Sequence record: NC_136441.1
DNA: 48,646 nucleotides
Origin: a phage
Strand: one strand, 5' to 3'
Shown piece after piece: positions 6,306 through 42,977 of this stretch. The position numbers and the translations under genes were made by a program. Under the pieces are notes generated by a model. That model was not told the DNA's origin. It searched no databases and was given only the letters and a program-made list of their open reading frames with translations. Every line of letters starts with the position of its first letter. Position 1 is the stretch's first letter.

Positions 6306-6333
6306 TTGAACGTTTAACAAAAAATGCTATATT
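6306..6333 (+). promoter_or_regulatory. sigma70-like promoter upstream of major capsid gene
   Basis: TTGAAC-N16-TATATT. Confidence 0.4.
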
Positions 6334-16170: not shown

Positions 16171-16217
16171 ACATGTACAATGGCAGCACGTTTAAATAGC
16201 ACAAAAGGTTAAAAGCT

Positions 16218-25417: not shown

Positions 25418-26344
25418 TTATAATAAGTCACTTGCCTTGTAAAGCATCCGCTCTATTCCATTTTTGAATTTTCCGTTAATTGGTAACATAACGTCTAATT
25501 CCCTTTCATCGGCTGCAATAATAGTTTCCTTGTCATCCTTATGGCAAACAACGCGCATTTTGCGATCTCCTTTGTACCTGTATGCTACAATTTCAAGATT
25601 TGATGCAGAGAAACAAGCCCATACTTCTTGTCCCGTCGCTAGGTGGATATGTTGCGCATCAATCCAATCAACGCAAAGATAGATCGTCTTATCAGTCTTG
25701 CCAGTTACTGCAACAGAGCCTCGCGTATAATCCTTAGCGTAAAAACTGCTTTGACCTTCCTCATTGACGAAAAGAATATTACACATATCATCGTCCAATT
25801 CATCACTATGCACTAGGTGGCAAGGAATGGCGTGAATATGTTCGCAGTATCCGTTGTCGTGAGTTTTTACGCCAACTTGATATGATTCACCATCTAACGG
25901 ATAAAACGCCTCAAAAACGCTTAGATTTGTTATTTCCATGCTTTCGGTTTTGCTCATAACATCAACGCATTTTTCGTGTGGCGCTTGAGATCCGAAACTA
26001 TAACCAGAATCACGCTTTGCCGCTTTGTTAGCCTTGTTGACAACCTCAACCGGAACCAGGTTTAACCATTCTCCTAGCGTGTCGATTGCTTCACTGTAAT
26101 TTTCACCACGGATACGCATGAATAATCCGATCCCTGAATCATTTCCGCACTGGTTGCAGATGTTCCCGCCGTCGCCTTTCTCGTTGATTTTATCAGTCCA
26201 GCGAAAGCGATCCTTACCTCCGCAATAAGGGCAAGGTTGATGTTTGCCGTTGAATGTTAATTGAGGAATATCACAAAGTTTCATCAATGCCGCTTGCCAC
26301 ATTCCGCGCATCTTTGGGATCACTTCTTCTTTCTGGTAATGCAT
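25418..26344 (-). CDS. DNA primase (P4-type zinc-ribbon N-terminus)
   Basis: 308 aa; CPYCGGKDRFRW...CNQCGN zinc ribbon; SD GGAGG; between tail fiber and helicase region. Confidence 0.5.
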   Translation of the reverse strand: MHYQKEEVIPKMRGMWQAALMKLCDIPQLTFNGKHQPCPYCGGKDRFRWTDKINEKGDGGNICNQCGNDSGIGLFMRIRGENYSEAIDTLGEWLNLVPVEVVNKANKAAKRDSGYSFGSQAPHEKCVDVMSKTESMEITNLSVFEAFYPLDGESYQVGVKTHDNGYCEHIHAIPCHLVHSDELDDDMCNILFVNEEGQSSFYAKDYTRGSVAVTGKTDKTIYLCVDWIDAQHIHLATGQEVWACFSASNLEIVAYRYKGDRKMRVVCHKDDKETIIAADERELDVMLPINGKFKNGIERMLYKASDLL

Positions 26345-26375: not shown

Positions 26376-26420
26376 ATGATAAACCATGCCAGGCTATAAT
26401 TTTTAGCAATCAGTGCTATC
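26376..26420 (-). promoter_or_regulatory. motif promoter (ATAGCACTGATTGCTAA + 22 nt + TATCAT) upstream of primase
   Basis: motif overlaps last codons/stop of HTH gene; -10 sits in loop of hairpin 26366..26394, which is followed by a T-run (also terminator-like). Confidence 0.45.
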
Positions 26421-27011
26421 CATAGTGATGACAACTTTCTTTTTCTGATTGGCTTCCTTTGCTTTCCTGCGTTCTTCTTTCGCCTTGTCTCGTTCAGCCT
26501 TGCGCCGCGCTTTCTCCTTCTCGCGTTCTTCTGGTGGCATTGACCGCAACGGATCGTAAGGCCGCACAAATCCGCGCGCCTCCGCTTCTTCTTTTGTGAC
26601 AAATCGCATGAGCTTTCTGTTGCTGCAACGATTCTCTAATGGCTTGCCGTTGTTGTCAAAGCGCAAATCTGGACGGCAATATGAAGCGCGGAAGCCGTTA
26701 AAACCTTTGCGGCGGTAATCCTTTTGGATCAGTTCAGCGCCTTTAGCTGAAATCATGCCGCGCTCTTTCCATCCCCACACTGTTTTAAGGTTAACGCCAA
26801 TCTCACGCGCCAACGCAGCACAGCCGCCATAAGCGCTAACCACCTCATCAAGCCTCGCTTTTAATCCTGCCCTTACTTCTTCCTTTAGTACCAGATAACC
26901 GCTAACAGGTGCGCGGCGCTTCCGGTCTTTACCACGCCTTACGCCGTTGTTACCATTGATTGTGCGTTTGTCGATTTCGCCCGTTGAGGCCGCAATTTTG
27001 ATTTCGCTCAT
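26403..27011 (-). CDS. helix-turn-helix DNA-binding protein (candidate transcription regulator)
   Basis: 202 aa; HTH-like GGCAALAREIGVNLKTVWGW; highly basic Lys/Arg/Glu C-terminal tail; SD AGGTGA. Confidence 0.5.
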   Translation of the reverse strand: MSEIKIAASTGEIDKRTINGNNGVRRGKDRKRRAPVSGYLVLKEEVRAGLKARLDEVVSAYGGCAALAREIGVNLKTVWGWKERGMISAKGAELIQKDYRRKGFNGFRASYCRPDLRFDNNGKPLENRCSNRKLMRFVTKEEAEARGFVRPYDPLRSMPPEEREKEKARRKAERDKAKEERRKAKEANQKKKVVITMDSTDC

Positions 27012-27099: not shown

Positions 27100-29073
27100 A
27101 TGATTCCTAACATTGAAAAGCAGATTGCAGATCTTGGAGAGGAAAGGATTAAGGCAATCCAGAAGCGTTTCACGGTTGGTGAGATTGTCCCGTATGAATA
27201 CCAATGCGTTGCTTACGCTGAAATTGCAAAGCGCTTGAGTAAGTATGTTGATCCGTTTTTCGTTAAAGCGGCGGTGTCGGCAGGTAAAACAATCATCTTT
27301 GCTATGGTTGCGGCTCAGTGCAGGAAAATGGGATTGAAAGCGTTATTTCTGGCGCGTCAATCTGAAATTGTGGATCAGGATTCAAAAGAGATTAGCGCCT
27401 TTGGTGTTCCGAATTCCGTTTATTGCGCTGGCCTGAATACCAAAAGCGCTTATTTCCCGATTGTTGTAGGATCGGAAGGTACTGTAATTGGCGGATTGAA
27501 TAAGGCGTTAGGTGATTACGTCCCACAGGTTTTAGGTATAGATGAATGTCATCAAGTCAACTGGAATGACATTGTTGAAGCCGAGGAAAACGGAGAAAGC
27601 ATAGAGCAGATGATGACGCCGAAAGGTGAACCAGTTGAAGGCAATCCGTTGCTGATTGGTTCAGGCCGCGCACAATACACCATTATCATTGCAGAAATGC
27701 GCCGCCGTTGTCTTGAGACTTACGGTCATCAGTTGCGTATATTTGGAATGACCGGATCGGAATATCGCGGAATTGAGCCGATACTTGTCGAAGATAAAAG
27801 AATTCCTGGGTTTTGGCGTGAGCAGATCACAAACATTGATACTGATTACCTGGTAAAATTTGGTTCAGTTGTTCCCACTTATTTTGGCAATGTTGGTGAT
27901 TTGGGTTACGACTTATCAGAATTTACGCCAGTGAATGAATTTGGCGTTGCTGATTATGACCAGAAGCAATTAAAGGCCATGAGTGACAAGATTCACCAAT
28001 CAGGAACCATGACGCAGAAAATAATGCAGATGGTTCACGAGGTGATGAAAAACCGCTTGTGCGCTCTTGTTACTTGCGCTGACGAAAGGCACTGCAAAGA
28101 GGCAGCGGCGGCGCTTCCGTCTGGCACGAAATATCACATTATTACCGGAAAAACTGGAGAGAAACAGCGGCGCTTATGGCTTGAGGATGCATATGAAGGG
28201 CGCGTTAAATACATCTTCCAGGTTCAGGCGCTAACAACTGGCGTTAACGTTCCGCCGTGGGATACTTCTGTGATTTTGCGTAAGATCGGAAGCCTGACGC
28301 TATTAACTCAGCTTTTGGGGCGTGGTATGCGTCAATTAAAAACATACCATAAAGAAGTATTGGGAATGCACAAAACAGATCACCTTGTTTTAGATTTTTC
28401 CGGCACGATGTTTGAAATGGGTAATTTGTATTTCGATCCTATGCTTGAGCAAGCGCAATTCCAGTTGCGTAAATCGCAGGATAAAGATCCGAAATTTTGC
28501 CCGATTTGCGGAACGGAAAATTCATTCTATGCGCGGCGTTGCATTAATGAAGATGAAAACGGAAATCGTTGTGAGCACTTTTGGACGTTTCAAACGTGTG
28601 AGGATCAGATTGATGGCCGCACAAAGAAAATAACGGTAAAAGGTTGTGGTGCTAAAAATGACGTTGCGGCGCGTGTATGCCGTTGCTGTAATGTTCAGTT
28701 ACGTGATCCAAATGATAATTTATCCGGCAAGATGTACCGCAAAAATGATTGGTGCGACGTGTTAGATTTTAATGTGACGCTGACAAAAAACCAGGCTGGC
28801 GTAATATTCTGCTACACGTTGCGCGATAGTGGCGGCGTAGAATTCAGGGCATACGAAAAATATTTCCCTGAATCAGAACACAAGATATGCAAAACGCTTT
28901 GGACAAAGGCTGTTAGAACACACGTTATAGATCGCCAGGCTGCAAACTATATGATAACTTGCCGCAACGCAATTAAGATCATGAGTTATGCGGGGCAAAT
29001 ATTGCCACCGAAGCGCGTTACGCATCGCAAGAACACAAAGAAAGAAGATTTAATAGCACAGAAGGAATTTTAA
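27100..29073 (+). CDS. SF2 DEAD/DEAH-box-type helicase with C-terminal Cys-rich zinc-finger region
   Basis: 657 aa; Walker A AVSAGKT, DEAH-like GIDECHQ, several CxxC pairs near C-terminus. Confidence 0.8.
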   Translation: MIPNIEKQIADLGEERIKAIQKRFTVGEIVPYEYQCVAYAEIAKRLSKYVDPFFVKAAVSAGKTIIFAMVAAQCRKMGLKALFLARQSEIVDQDSKEISAFGVPNSVYCAGLNTKSAYFPIVVGSEGTVIGGLNKALGDYVPQVLGIDECHQVNWNDIVEAEENGESIEQMMTPKGEPVEGNPLLIGSGRAQYTIIIAEMRRRCLETYGHQLRIFGMTGSEYRGIEPILVEDKRIPGFWREQITNIDTDYLVKFGSVVPTYFGNVGDLGYDLSEFTPVNEFGVADYDQKQLKAMSDKIHQSGTMTQKIMQMVHEVMKNRLCALVTCADERHCKEAAAALPSGTKYHIITGKTGEKQRRLWLEDAYEGRVKYIFQVQALTTGVNVPPWDTSVILRKIGSLTLLTQLLGRGMRQLKTYHKEVLGMHKTDHLVLDFSGTMFEMGNLYFDPMLEQAQFQLRKSQDKDPKFCPICGTENSFYARRCINEDENGNRCEHFWTFQTCEDQIDGRTKKITVKGCGAKNDVAARVCRCCNVQLRDPNDNLSGKMYRKNDWCDVLDFNVTLTKNQAGVIFCYTLRDSGGVEFRAYEKYFPESEHKICKTLWTKAVRTHVIDRQAANYMITCRNAIKIMSYAGQILPPKRVTHRKNTKKEDLIAQKEF

Positions 29074-33693: not shown

Positions 33694-33708
33694 GCCGCCT
33701 TTTCTTTT
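33682..33708. terminator. rho-independent terminator at convergence of lysis cassette and minus-strand block
   Basis: AAGGCGGC-ATA-AGCCGCCTT followed by TTCTTTT. Confidence 0.6.
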
Positions 33709-33904
33709 ACTCAAATTTTCTAGCATGAATTAGCAATTCACCATCATGATTTGTCAGTTGATGCTCTTGATCCCCAAACGCTCGCATATCACTGTAAAGC
33801 AACAGCATTAACGCATAGACAAAATCATCATGCGGAATTTGCATTGCTGAACTTTCTTTCAAAATAAGATCTATCAAATGCTGGCTTGCTGAATAATTCT
33901 TCAT
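33707..33904 (-). CDS. hypothetical protein (overlaps 33828..34220 out of frame)
   Basis: 65-aa ORF; 77-nt overlap with upstream ORF in another frame. Confidence 0.25.
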   Translation of the reverse strand: MKNYSASQHLIDLILKESSAMQIPHDDFVYALMLLLYSDMRAFGDQEHQLTNHDGELLIHARKFE

Positions 33905-34220
33905 CGCTCATTTTCTCAATGTTCATCATCTCCCACACATAACGATTGTAATCACCTTCCAGGCTATGCAACTCAAAATTAAACGGCCTTTTCATCTTGT
34001 TTTTGCACCAGTACACGCAATGAACGCCGTCAAGATATCCATAACCAATCATTCGCGCTATAAACTCTTTGCTTGAACTTGATGCGAAATAGCGTGGCGT
34101 TACCCCCGCATTTTTTGCGAGCCTTTCACATTCACGGTGACGGAATATAAATCTTGCTAACTCTTGGCGGTTGAATTTCTCGCGAGACTCGCAAAAGCGA
34201 TACAGATCTAATAAGAACAT
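33828..34220 (-). CDS. hypothetical protein
   Basis: 130 aa, start adjacent to stop of upstream ATPase gene. Confidence 0.45.
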   Translation of the reverse strand: MFLLDLYRFCESREKFNRQELARFIFRHRECERLAKNAGVTPRYFASSSSKEFIARMIGYGYLDGVHCVYWCKNKMKRPFNFELHSLEGDYNRYVWEMMNIEKMSDEELFSKPAFDRSYFERKFSNANSA

Positions 34221-34222
34221 GA

Positions 34223-35803
34223 TTACCCCATTAACGCCGGATTTACATAAACAAATTTACCAACGCTGCAAACATAATTCTTTTCTTCAAGCATTGGCAA
34301 TAATTGTTCCTCAATTCGTTTCATCACGCCTGATTGACCTGTAAACGGCTTAACCTTACGCGCACTTTCATAGATAGCTCTTGCATTGGTAACGCCTTTA
34401 TTTTGACGTGAGATCTTAATGATGATTTCAATTAACTTGCTCATTTCGGCATCATCGCCAGCGTGACCGGAAGCATTCGCGGCGTTGATATATGTTTTGC
34501 TTAATTCGCTGAACATTACCAAAGCCTCTTGCATTGTCTCAACTTCAATTTCTCGCGACTTTTGCGGCGTACCGTTTGGATTAAACCAATTGCGGATCGT
34601 GTGCAATACTGACGCAATGCGGATCACTTGTTTATCCATTTTACCCAAAGCACCACGCAACATTGTATGTGAATATTTTCCGCCGTCTGCTAAATCCGGC
34701 TCTAATTGCTGGCGAGCAATATTAAGAACACGCATTGCAGAACGTGACGGCTTCAATACAACATTTTGCTCAGTCATGATGTTATGAATCAACTGGAAAT
34801 ATTGCGCCTTTAATTCTTTATCAACTGGCGTGTAATCAAGATCACCATTTTCATCAATAAATACACGCTCGCCTAACATTGTTTTTTCACGTACAAGCAA
34901 GAAACGTTCACTAACACCGATACCCCGCGCCCCTGCATCCATGATCCCTTTTATCGTTTCATCCTGGGCAATTACGCTCATGCAGCCCAACGCAACAAAA
35001 CTCATATTGTTTTCAGAGTTGGCGCGAGCTATTGAAACGTGTCCGGCGTCCCATGCTTTTAGAACCAATTCGCTGTTAGTCTTGCGATCACTATTAGCGT
35101 AAGTCAATCCGAGTAAGCTGTTGATGCTTGTTGCTTCATCGGAAATGACAGCAAAGTTACCCTGGCGATTGTTGATCTTTGCTAACCCTTCCGGCGTGGT
35201 GTCTGATACCGGAAAAACGATATCGCACATTTTTTCTAACTTTTCCTCTAATTCCTCCTTTTCCTCAAACAACGCCGCTAACTCAGTGCCTGAACGTTCA
35301 GCTTTCAATTCCTTTTCAACGCCTTTTAATTTCGCTGAGATCTTCTTTCGCTCTTTCTTGCGTTGTTCGTTGATTCGCTCAACTTCACAGACCATTGGCG
35401 CAATAGCCAGGCTGTTGATTGCTGATTTACCAGTTGATGGCGGCTGACTGGTTACAACATAAAGCGCCGTTGGTTGTTCAGTGCCGTGGTACTCAACTTG
35501 GAAGCGTCCAACCATAGCGGCGGAAACGCAACCTATGAAATGCATATAGGCCGATGATTCAGGAAATTGAACAGATTGCGCAATGCTACGTGACAGTTTA
35601 CCCACAACATCAACATCATTACCCAAAGAGATCACAGGATAACGGTCATTAGCGCCGTTGATATCCTTCACAGGTTCCCAAAAGCTGGATGATTGGCGGT
35701 AGCCGTTAGACTGAATAGCAACGCGAAGCGGCGATGTTCCCTGCGATTCTGCAATGGCTATAACTTGTTGAGGTGTCAATTTGTTGGTGTCAAAGTCAAA
35801 CAT
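34223..35803 (-). CDS. P-loop NTPase with coiled-coil insertion (possible replication/helicase-like protein)
   Basis: 526 aa; Walker A SQPPSTGKS, Walker B AVISDEAT, Lys/Glu-rich coiled coil between them; own motif promoter; SD AAGGAGA. Confidence 0.55.
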   Translation of the reverse strand: MFDFDTNKLTPQQVIAIAESQGTSPLRVAIQSNGYRQSSSFWEPVKDINGANDRYPVISLGNDVDVVGKLSRSIAQSVQFPESSAYMHFIGCVSAAMVGRFQVEYHGTEQPTALYVVTSQPPSTGKSAINSLAIAPMVCEVERINEQRKKERKKISAKLKGVEKELKAERSGTELAALFEEKEELEEKLEKMCDIVFPVSDTTPEGLAKINNRQGNFAVISDEATSINSLLGLTYANSDRKTNSELVLKAWDAGHVSIARANSENNMSFVALGCMSVIAQDETIKGIMDAGARGIGVSERFLLVREKTMLGERVFIDENGDLDYTPVDKELKAQYFQLIHNIMTEQNVVLKPSRSAMRVLNIARQQLEPDLADGGKYSHTMLRGALGKMDKQVIRIASVLHTIRNWFNPNGTPQKSREIEVETMQEALVMFSELSKTYINAANASGHAGDDAEMSKLIEIIIKISRQNKGVTNARAIYESARKVKPFTGQSGVMKRIEEQLLPMLEEKNYVCSVGKFVYVNPALMG

Positions 35804-35830
35804 CTAAAAATCTCCTTCTTGTTGCCGCTA

Positions 35831-35874
35831 ATTATAACGGCAACATTCTACAGCCTTTTAGCAATTCGTGCTAT
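35831..35874 (-). promoter_or_regulatory. motif promoter (ATAGCACGAATTGCTAAAAG + 22 nt + TATAAT)
   Basis: minus strand; motif overlaps TAG stop of 35871..36119; hairpin TTGCCG/CGGCAA with -10 in loop; upstream of ATPase gene. Confidence 0.5.
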
Positions 35875-36119
35875 TTGATCGGCTCAACCCTGGCTAATAA
35901 CTTTCCGTCTATAATGCTATGACATTCAAGAGTTTTAGGATCGAATGCAAGCGAACGATGGAACGTATGACCAATCAGCAAATATGAATGCTTATCCCTG
36001 ATGCGATAGACCGTTTCACCTTCCTTTAATGACGATATCGCACTAAAAACAACCTTGTAACGATATTTTTGCATAGCCTCAGAACGGTGAGGAATGTAAT
36101 CTTTTTCCGGTAAACTCAT
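35871..36119 (-). CDS. hypothetical protein
   Basis: 82 aa, coupled to upstream gene. Confidence 0.45.
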   Translation of the reverse strand: MSLPEKDYIPHRSEAMQKYRYKVVFSAISSLKEGETVYRIRDKHSYLLIGHTFHRSLAFDPKTLECHSIIDGKLLARVEPIK

Positions 36120-40599: not shown

Positions 40600-40607
40600 C
40601 ATGCAGT

Positions 40608-40635
40608 AGACCGATTGGTCTAGACCGTTTGGTCT
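40608..40635. repeat. two tandem 14-bp near-palindromes AGACCGATTGGTCT / AGACCGTTTGGTCT
   Basis: direct reading; operator- or iteron-like. Confidence 0.8.
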
Positions 40636-40775
40636 AATGAACGCATCGTTCAACGTATCGAACGCATTCACGATCACGTTATACGATCACAATATGATCA
40701 TGTTGATGATTGATGTGTGAGTTGATGTGATTGAAATTGATTTGATTTGATTAGATTTGAGTAGTGAGTGAGTAG
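40636..40775. repeat. iteron-like cluster of short direct repeats (GAACGCAT x2, ACGATCAC x2, GATTGA/GATTTGA series, GTGAG x2)
   Basis: direct reading of non-coding control region. Confidence 0.7.
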
Positions 40776-40916
40776 AAATAATCACACCTTGCCGATCTCG
40801 TGAAAACTTTTCTCGCAAAACATCACTCCAGGCTACGAATGTTTCGTTTTGTTCCTCGCTGTTCCCAGCCCGACCTTCCGCAGTTTAGCGCAACGTTACA
40901 CAACACGTATAACAAC

Positions 40917-40967
40917 AAAATATCTATATAATACATTGAAAAGTAAGATAATTATTATTATATATCT
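40917..40967 (+). repeat. AT-rich conserved element, copy B
   Basis: same two 20-bp arms and 11-bp spacer length as copy A at 20114..20164. Confidence 0.8.
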
Positions 40968-41188
40968 ATATTGTTATATAACTTGTTTTGCTTGTTTCTC
41001 ATGATATTGATACCCCTTTACTGATTGATAGAGTATAAAATTATAAGATAGGTGCTCTTATTTATTATAGGTGGCGGTGATTTTTAGCGAAATGGTATAA
41101 CGATTTAGAACATAGTTGATTTGAAAGGATAAATTTGCAATTACTGTTACATTGCGTGATGTTTTTGTTGCCTAATCAAAAATAACAC

Positions 41189-41216
41189 TTGACGCATAAG
41201 CCAGGCTTGCTAAGAT
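41189..41216 (+). promoter_or_regulatory. sigma70-like promoter for rightward early block
   Basis: TTGACG-N16-TAAGAT about 35 nt upstream of SD GGAGG and ATG 41251. Confidence 0.5.
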
Positions 41217-41250
41217 TTCTGCATCGAGCAACAACGGAGGATAACCAATC

Positions 41251-42577: not shown

Positions 42578-42977
42578 ATGAAATTAGCACGTAACGCGGT
42601 TTATGGCTTACACCTTAATAAAGGCGGCAAAGGCTCAACTTATGCACACCTTTTTCATGTTAATGAGCGCGGTCAAATTGATATTGCAATGTATGTTGAC
42701 AAACTGGTTAAAGGTTGTGAGTCCAACAAGTTCAGACCAGATCTGATTGAATACGATCACACACACAGTCACGACCACTGGTTAGGTGGTTAAAGGTTGT
42801 GAGTCCAACAAGTTCAGACCAGATCTGATTGAATACGATCACACACACAGTCACGACCACTGGTTAGGTGGTTATAAATTTACAATGCTGGATAGCCATG
42901 TTATTGACACAAGAAAATTAACGAATCGTGACTATAGGCGCATGGCTCGAAAAATCCTGAGGCAGAAAGCGCAATAG
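42578..42977 (+). pseudogene. early gene split by a perfect 82-bp tandem duplication (fragments 42578..42793 and 42786..42977)
   Basis: two ORFs share a 28-aa overlap (VKGCESNKFRPDLIEYDHTHSHDHWLGG); removing one 82-bp copy restores a single 106-codon ORF. Confidence 0.55.
42705..42868 (+). repeat. perfect 82-bp tandem duplication (2 copies) flanked by TGGTTA microhomology
   Basis: 42705..42786 is identical to 42787..42868; next 6 nt (42869..42874) repeat the unit start. Confidence 0.9.

Follow-up and report, generated by a model that had tools for sequence, protein, structure and literature searches.

The phage genome NC_136441.1 (48,646 nucleotides, referred to over its whole length as the window) encodes on its minus strand a 526-residue protein (34223..35803) that is probably the phage's ring helicase at the replication fork, where it would work with a separately encoded phage primase and the host DNA polymerase III (Pol III). 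The protein is a member of the DUF3987 family of AAA+ ATPases and a structural relative of the MCM helicases, not an MCM proper; the link to MCM is visible only through profile-profile comparison, as used in the literature, or through structure. Within the AAA+ superfamily, DUF3987 proteins fall in clade 7, as a sister group of MCM (superfamily 6) from bacteria and phages. The family was previously described as divergent, MCM-related helicases of superfamily 6, commonly linked to primases of the AEP or DnaG type and carrying a C-terminal winged helix, and a role as replicative helicases was proposed for it (Kazlauskas et al. 2016; PMC4889955). In AgaPH, a PriCT-DUF3987 protein of a Seonamhaeicola mobile element purified in 2025, an oligomeric, ATP/dATP-dependent 5'-3' helicase activity was observed; unwinding requires both Walker A and Walker B, and the protein binds its primase-polymerase (PMC11724360). 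Public records and papers already contain the phage protein and its family, the helicase annotation, and the replicative role predicted for the family.

The gene is a complete open reading frame (ORF) of 526 codons that starts with an ATG at 35803; a ribosome-binding site, AAGGAG, stands at 35812-35817, 8 nucleotides 5' of the start codon. An earlier reading of the letters without database searches (the sequence-only reading) had delimited the frame exactly so, and had correctly named it the largest gene of the minus-strand early block (approximately 33.7-40.6 kb), in which the runner-up has 249 residues. The same reading could assign no family by eye. The Pfam model DUF3987 (PF13148) does so over residues 81-432 (E=4e-43; 148.4 bits against a cut-off of 27) in a full-length match above the gathering threshold, spanning profile positions 3-352 of 364, and PHROG 2373 (phrog_2373), annotated 'DNA helicase', covers the whole protein (E=5e-253); residues 440-525 additionally match phrog_7327. 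Taken with the literature, these matches essentially place the protein, with confidence, in a known housekeeping family of phages, the outcome by which the sequence-only reading had said it would be refuted. That the gene is real is clear from its spread: homologs are present in 920 phage records (tblastn), an exhaustive profile search yielded 6143 cluster representatives at 50% identity (E<=1e-3), and PF13148 was found in all of 74 diverse relatives. The Pfam MCM model (PF00493) gave no match to the protein at E<=1 and none in the 74 relatives at E<=0.01, an NCBIfam scan of the protein returned nothing meaningful, and PDB searches by sequence, whether started from the protein or from a 28-sequence profile, produced chance matches only, with no solved homolog detectable.

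Close relatives confirm that the phage is T1-like, and more precisely Tls-like. The gene shares 98.8-99.6% DNA identity with genes annotated as helicases in Tls-like phages (Drexlerviridae, Tempevirinae, Tlsvirus), and the 'putative helicase' of Citrobacter phage ZerotoHero is 100% identical in protein sequence. Its ortholog in Tls is gp71 (gene 'yfiJ', YP_001285561; annotated 'DNA helicase / putative ATPase'), with 98.8% DNA and 99.8% protein identity, and its ortholog in T1 is ST9 (YP_003936), with 59% protein identity (tblastn). Both have the same length, lie at the same site by the lysis cassette and precede the same small downstream gene. There is no difference of substance between these two orthologs and the protein described here.

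The predicted fold agrees with the family assignment. An AlphaFold2 model computed on an alignment of 28 orthologs (pLDDT 87.8, pTM 0.86) contains an AAA+ alpha-beta-alpha core, which in structure searches is closest to the MCM, BchI or RavA group. A Foldseek comparison of the predicted structure with the PDB, one of the checks suggested by the sequence-only reading, returned MCM proteins for all of the best 30 matches. In a viral structure library, DUF3987 proteins, helicases or primases make up most of the named matches, several of which bear the name of a primase or primase-polymerase domain protein. Neither sequence nor fold searches found a DUF3987 structure in the PDB.

Conservation was judged from two alignments, of the 28 orthologs and of the 74 diverse relatives; ten residues are invariant in the latter (K126, E205, G215, E223, R260, Q280, G296, R300, E306 and K388). 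All features of the gene described below lie on the minus strand. The P-loop, or Walker A motif, QPPSTGKS occupies residues 120-127 (35423..35446) and the Walker B strand FAVISDE residues 217-223 (35135..35155; strand 217-221 in the model), in agreement with the sequence-only reading, which had recognized a P-loop ATPase from PPSTGKS and AVISDEAT (residues 121-127 and 218-225). Walker A K126 and Walker B E223 are invariant in both alignments. Distant members have the P-loop PPxxAKS, which resembles that of MCM. A beta-hairpin (residues 252-273; 34985..35050; modelled strands 252-258 and 267-279) precedes the sensor-1 strand, and its tip carries R260, which is invariant, and R263, which nearly is. 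Judged by the order of elements, this hairpin stands where MCM has its pre-sensor-1 hairpin, which contacts DNA, and is a candidate for a DNA-binding pore loop of that kind. The following region, from the sensor-1 strand VIAQDE (277-282) through SERF (298-301; 34901..34975; strand 301-305), includes the invariant Q280 and R300. By analogy, R300 of SERF, situated after strand 5, is a candidate arginine finger equivalent to that of the MCM SRF motif, a parallel based on established knowledge of MCM and on the fold match. In the alpha-helical lid (residues 329-430; 34514..34819; helices 329-343, 354-371, 380-387 and 389-405), the motif LRGxxGKxDK (382-391) contains K388, invariant family-wide, and R383, invariant among orthologs, which element order and spacing mark as candidate sensor 2 residues. 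The corresponding spacings from Walker B (77 and 83-88 residues) resemble those of MCM.

These elements suggest how the protein may act. As a ring-forming AAA+ ATPase, presumably a hexamer, it would bind ATP at the interfaces between subunits, with K126 and E223 acting in cis and R300 together with K388 and R383 contributed by the neighbouring subunit. Hydrolysis would drive the basic beta-hairpin with R260 and R263 along single-stranded DNA in the central channel, thereby unwinding the fork. Contacts to DNA or to partners would come from the winged helix at the C-terminus and the small helical domain at the N-terminus, and the helicase may team with the Zn-ribbon primase encoded at 25418-26344 and the host Pol III holoenzyme, a partnership proposed because the phage has no DNA polymerase of its own.

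Between the two Walker motifs, the sequence-only reading had seen a Lys/Glu-rich coiled coil of approximately 50 residues. The charged helices are present (residues 141-191; 35231..35383), with 15 of 51 residues Lys or Arg and 14 Asp or Glu, but the model shows an antiparallel hairpin rather than an SMC-type coiled coil: the Walker A helix runs on (126-168), turns, and returns as helix 172-191 ahead of beta2. Model confidence is high in this region, with 10-residue blocks over residues 131-190 at pLDDT 87-96. The ascending helix has a net charge of +6 and the descending helix of -5; the basic character of the former is kept in 27 of 28 aligned sequences, and the acidic character of the latter is weaker or neutral in a few. 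In sequence the hairpin ranks with the least conserved regions of the protein, with 59% identity among orthologs, compared with 79% in the core. From the Walker A Lys to the Walker B Glu there are 96 residues here and 53-114 in relatives, among which the segment before the conserved TPE motif ranges from short to very long; the connector is short in one relative (P0239), in which the hairpin is nearly absent, and far longer in another (P0254) than here. PF13148 covers the hairpin region at near-equal length (352 residues on 350 profile positions). As modelled, the segment is an intramolecular hairpin, a family-typical and expandable decoration at a fixed site outside the catalytic core, and is neither a coiled coil of the SMC/Rad50 type nor the initiator-specific motif of DnaA and ORC. 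The best guess at its function is a surface arm for contacts between subunits or with primase or DNA.

Among the roles that the sequence-only reading had offered were DNA repair or host takeover, and helicase loading. The first, taken as an SMC/Rad50-like DNA-repair ATPase or a host-takeover or anti-defence ATPase, draws on the superficial order of Walker A, coiled coil and Walker B and on the site of the gene among small early genes, and is scarcely credible: the fold is AAA+ and MCM-like instead of an ABC/SMC head, no SMC or Rad50 head is among the structural matches listed, and matches to JetB, Scc1 and ScpA (kleisin) align over 62-87 residues, as fits a match to the winged-helix domain. 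Moreover, the hairpin extends over only some 50 residues and is nearly absent in some family members, such as the relative named above, the partners to which the family is fused are all replication modules, and host takeover finds no support, with no match of the protein to PADLOC models at E<=0.01. The second role, a helicase loader or AAA+ remodeller that would recruit or load host DnaB in the manner of lambda P or DnaC, or remodel host replication proteins, agrees with the reliance of the phage on the host polymerase; there are AAA+ loaders, and helices inserted between Walker A and Walker B recall the initiator-specific motif of DnaA, DnaC and ORC. This role is nevertheless very unlikely. 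The insertion lies between alpha1 and beta2, which is not the position of that motif, ORC/Cdc6 chains align over just 77-98 residues compared with approximately 250 for MCM, the family member AgaPH has direct helicase activity, and in one relative (P0183) the module follows a DnaB N-terminal domain and so takes the place of the DnaB motor. Both the SMC/Rad50-like and the loader readings were rejected on grounds of fold. The suggestion of a replication-related role stands, with the protein most likely the helicase motor itself and not its loader.

A bolder extension of the fork helicase model is that the hairpin, together with the loss of the N-terminal MCM collar and helix-2 insert, may mark out a branch of MCM-like helicases, in bacteria and phages, whose mechanism is distinct. 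Six of these basic and acidic hairpins would then form a collar or docking platform enabling the ring to load itself, to set its 5'-3' polarity and to couple both a DnaG-type primase and the Pol III holoenzyme of the host. This idea is doubtful; if true, the hairpin platform would let a phage without a polymerase run a fork without DnaB.

The domains at the two ends of the protein are more variable than its core. At the N-terminus a small helical domain and linker (residues 1-63; 35615..35803; helices 11-21, 25-33 and 36-41) has 58% mean identity among close orthologs, compared with 79% in the core. Its position is taken in relatives by DnaB_N, PriCT or primase domains, and the alignment to P0183 begins only at residue 64; it is probably a partner-docking module. 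At the C-terminus, a helical and winged-helix domain (residues 445-526; 34226..34471) follows the ATPase, as described for DUF3987 (Kazlauskas et al. 2016). Its identity among orthologs is 56%, again compared with 79% in the core, and in structure searches it resembles ORC/Cdc6 and other DNA-binding winged-helix domains.

This last domain raises the possibility of an initiator-helicase, in which the winged helix would recognize the phage origin and the protein would load itself, melt the DNA and unwind it, in the manner of P4 alpha, SaPI Rep, SV40 large T antigen and papillomavirus E1. Such a function would extend the role at the fork and is compatible with it; it is possible, albeit unlikely on balance. 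Besides the likeness to ORC/Cdc6, the domain varies as a specificity determinant would; it forms a PHROG family of its own, and in phage KL it is matched separately. The primase of T1 is annotated as P4-type alpha-like, and the helicase and origin-binding part of alpha is missing here. The description of phage TLS names no initiator gene and finds no iterons (PMC11447400). Here too, however, tandem- and direct-repeat searches detected no iterons in or beside the helicase gene, and the N-terminal domain and the hairpin vary as much as the winged helix does. The winged helices of MCM often mediate protein contacts rather than origin recognition, and the helix-turn-helix (HTH) 'regulator' encoded at 26403-27011 would be an alternative origin binder.

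The linkage of the family to primases favours the fork helicase model. The window encodes a stand-alone primase of 308 residues with a Zn ribbon of the T7 gp4 type (25418..26344, minus strand; Pfam Zn_Ribbon_Prim, E=1.5e-13). It is considered to lack a helicase half because its match to PHROG 510 'DNA primase' is limited to the first half of the profile (positions 11-339 of 667), and it is the presumed partner of the DUF3987 helicase. The two genes form a conserved replication trio with helA, which encodes a superfamily 2 (SF2) helicase of 657 residues (27100..29073, plus strand; ResIII and Helicase_C by Pfam, with PHROG support) that is probably an accessory helicase. All three occur together in Tls, T1, Aeromonas phage pIS4-A, Acinetobacter phage AB4P2 and Plesiomonas phage phiP4-7, with identities of 33-59% for DUF3987, 30-55% for the primase and 43-62% for HelA; for the last three, the DUF3987 gene is found 1-3 genes from the divergently transcribed primase gene. 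Distant relatives fuse DUF3987 to Prim-Pol, BT4734 AEP, DnaG zinc ribbon, PriCT-2 or NrS-1 HBD domains, and two, including P0183, carry it behind a DnaB N-terminal domain in place of the DnaB motor. In this census of fusions, every partner is a part of the replisome. Phage TLS lacks a DNA polymerase and presumably relies on enzymes of the host (PMC11447400).

Several observations weigh against the assignment to the fork. In the present phage, as in Tls and T1, the helicase gene is approximately 8 kb from the primase gene, among small early genes by the lysis cassette, and the module of Tls and T1 is interrupted by dam, exonuclease and lysis genes. The 2024 description of TLS names gp58 HelA as the replication helicase and leaves gp71 undiscussed (PMC11447400). 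The literature search found no experiment on the protein or any Drexlerviridae ortholog and no functional study of YfjI, and yielded nothing usable on the classical DNA-negative amber genes of T1 or the dependence of T1 on host dna genes. A paper on Druantia and Zorya, which turned up in connection with escape mutants, proved irrelevant to the gene. Many family members replace Walker B D222 (35138-35140) by Ala or Ser (ISAEA, SSEQG), and some orthologs have Ala there; together with the family-wide conservation of E205 in the TPE motif, just past beta2, this variation hints at non-canonical metal coordination as judged from the alignments. Finally, the protein departs from MCM (superfamily 6, PF00493), with which it shares 13-17% identity. 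The N-terminal OB-fold/Zn collar of MCM is absent, residues 1-97 being short and all-helical in the model, and so is the helix-2 insert, the modelled alpha2 (204-214) being short and unbroken; a helical hairpin between alpha1 and beta2 is present instead. AgaPH, the only family member assayed, has a 5'-3' polarity opposite to that of MCM. MCM translocates in the 3'-5' direction.

Some of the same facts would suit a motor for recombination or restart, in which HelA or host DnaB would serve the fork and the DUF3987 protein would act as an accessory helicase for branch migration or recombination-dependent replication, like ComM or MCM8/9, during concatemer formation. ComM and MCM8/9 are among the structural neighbours, the helicase gene stands apart from the primase gene in Tls and T1, these phages carry genes for a RecE-like exonuclease, an Erf-like annealing protein and a single-stranded DNA-binding protein, and the TLS authors assign the fork to HelA (PMC11447400). 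SF2 enzymes are not typical fork helicases, however, and the linkage to primase favours the DUF3987 protein in that position, which makes a recombination motor improbable.

The homolog of Tls gp70 (33828..34220, minus strand; 130 residues; PHROG 2794 of unknown function) starts 2 nucleotides past the helicase stop codon and adjoins the helicase gene in T1 as well (ST10), with 53% identity to the T1 locus. It has no Pfam or PADLOC match and is a possible accessory factor. A 65-codon ORF at 33707-33904 on the minus strand overlaps its 3' end by 77 nucleotides in another frame. This ORF matches PHROG 9539 (E=7e-36), has 97% identity to Tls and 36% to T1, is unannotated in the Tls RefSeq record and is probably a real small gene. 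The HTH 'regulator' gene (26403-27011, minus strand) lies between primase and helA and has a below-threshold match to a YdaS-like Pfam family. On an unrelated metagenomic contig (L006), a weak match to the same family marks a small gene (344-727) directly upstream of a DnaB_N-DUF3987 fusion gene. These matches hint that an HTH protein recurs as a partner of DUF3987 helicases, where it might bind the origin. The contig that carries the DnaB_N-DUF3987 relative has 3.4 kb, which is not long enough for a primase gene to be seen beside it.

Upstream of the helicase gene lies a putative control region (35821..35876, minus strand) composed of a repeat motif, a TATAAT hexamer and an inverted repeat. 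A copy of the repeated motif AAATAGCACnnnTTGnTAAAA, the 21-nucleotide element AAATAGCACGAATTGCTAAAA, occupies 35856-35876, 53 nucleotides 5' of the ATG; it overlaps the stop codon of the preceding gene, and TATAAT (35831-35836) lies within the loop of a 7-bp inverted repeat at 35821-35844. The element ATAGCACnnnTTGnTAAAA occurs in 20 copies in the window, compared with 0.3 expected by chance, at 6312, 26401, 35856, 36536, 37949, 38687, 39512, 40213 and 40580 on the minus strand and at 16196, 21510, 25265, 27022, 29479, 30803, 42226, 42502, 44090, 45165 and 46551 on the plus strand. Copies are mostly intergenic and oriented with transcription, and some precede primase and helA. Approximately 12 of the 20 have a -10-like hexamer (CATAAT, TATAAT, TATAGT, TAAAGT or TATACT) 19-20 nucleotides downstream, often within the loop of an inverted repeat (6-11 bp) with stems that differ in sequence between copies, and in many a conserved stretch like CATCGAAACGA then follows. 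The distance from TTGnTA to the -10-like hexamer, approximately 23 nucleotides, is too great for a canonical -35 element. A simple sigma-70 scan called no promoter upstream of the helicase gene because the spacing of TTGCTA and TATAAT is likewise about 23 nucleotides. The arrangement suggests a putative promoter class dependent on an upstream activator or an UP-like box. The claim that the gene has its own motif promoter is borne out as far as the motif goes; its function as a promoter is a prediction. The repeat has been described in phage TLS as an element of unknown function (PMC11447400).

Two further features of the window were noted outside these loci. The homolog of Tls gp07, a small early gene, contains an exact tandem duplication of 82 nucleotides (42705-42868, plus strand; 2.1 copies, 100% identity). 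The duplication shifts the reading frame, as 82 is not a multiple of 3, and is absent in the close relatives Stevie, KMB25 and Tls, in which the stretch of 451 nucleotides maps to approximately 367-369 nucleotides with a single copy; it arose either through recent duplication or as an artefact of the assembly. Where the minus- and plus-strand early blocks diverge, approximately 650 bp (40600-41250) are free of convincing ORFs. This stretch includes a GC minimum of 25% (40900-41099), a palindromic 14-mer present twice (40607-40636) and 8.6 copies of TGATT (40718-40760). It probably matches the opening point of the Tls record and is a candidate origin or terminal region.

The value of these findings, which will not surprise a specialist, lies mainly in correct annotation. 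They provide a fork helicase candidate for T1- and Tls-like phages, which are common laboratory contaminants and candidates for therapy, and correct the habit of calling the SF2 protein HelA the replication helicase. A single distant DUF3987 member has been assayed so far, and it moves opposite to MCM; an ortholog from a coliphage amenable to genetics would, if well behaved, be a good system in which to study a bacterial-world relative of MCM and its cooperation with host Pol III.

Among known systems, the replicases of mobile elements offer a first comparison. P4 alpha, SaPI Rep and Cch of SCCmec combine primase, helicase and origin binding, and Cch belongs to DUF927; unlike these, the helicase of the present phage is a DUF3987 protein and is separately encoded. 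The helicase of P4 alpha belongs to superfamily 3 and is fused to its primase. Phage N4 dns, which is genetically essential for N4 replication, has been cited among the divergent superfamily-6 phage helicases assigned to DUF3987 (Kazlauskas et al. 2016; PMC4889955). Compared by description, N4 dns has an AEP primase domain C-terminal to its helicase, whereas the present protein has no primase domain. The likeness to AgaPH, drawn from family and domain layout, lies in conserved Walker A and B motifs and a small C-terminal domain, with AgaPH functionally coupled to a primase. AgaPH differs in its N-terminal PriCT domain and in the AEP primase-polymerase encoded next door; in the phage protein a different small N-terminal domain takes the place of PriCT, and the primase encoded 8 kb away is of the DnaG/T7 Zn-ribbon type.

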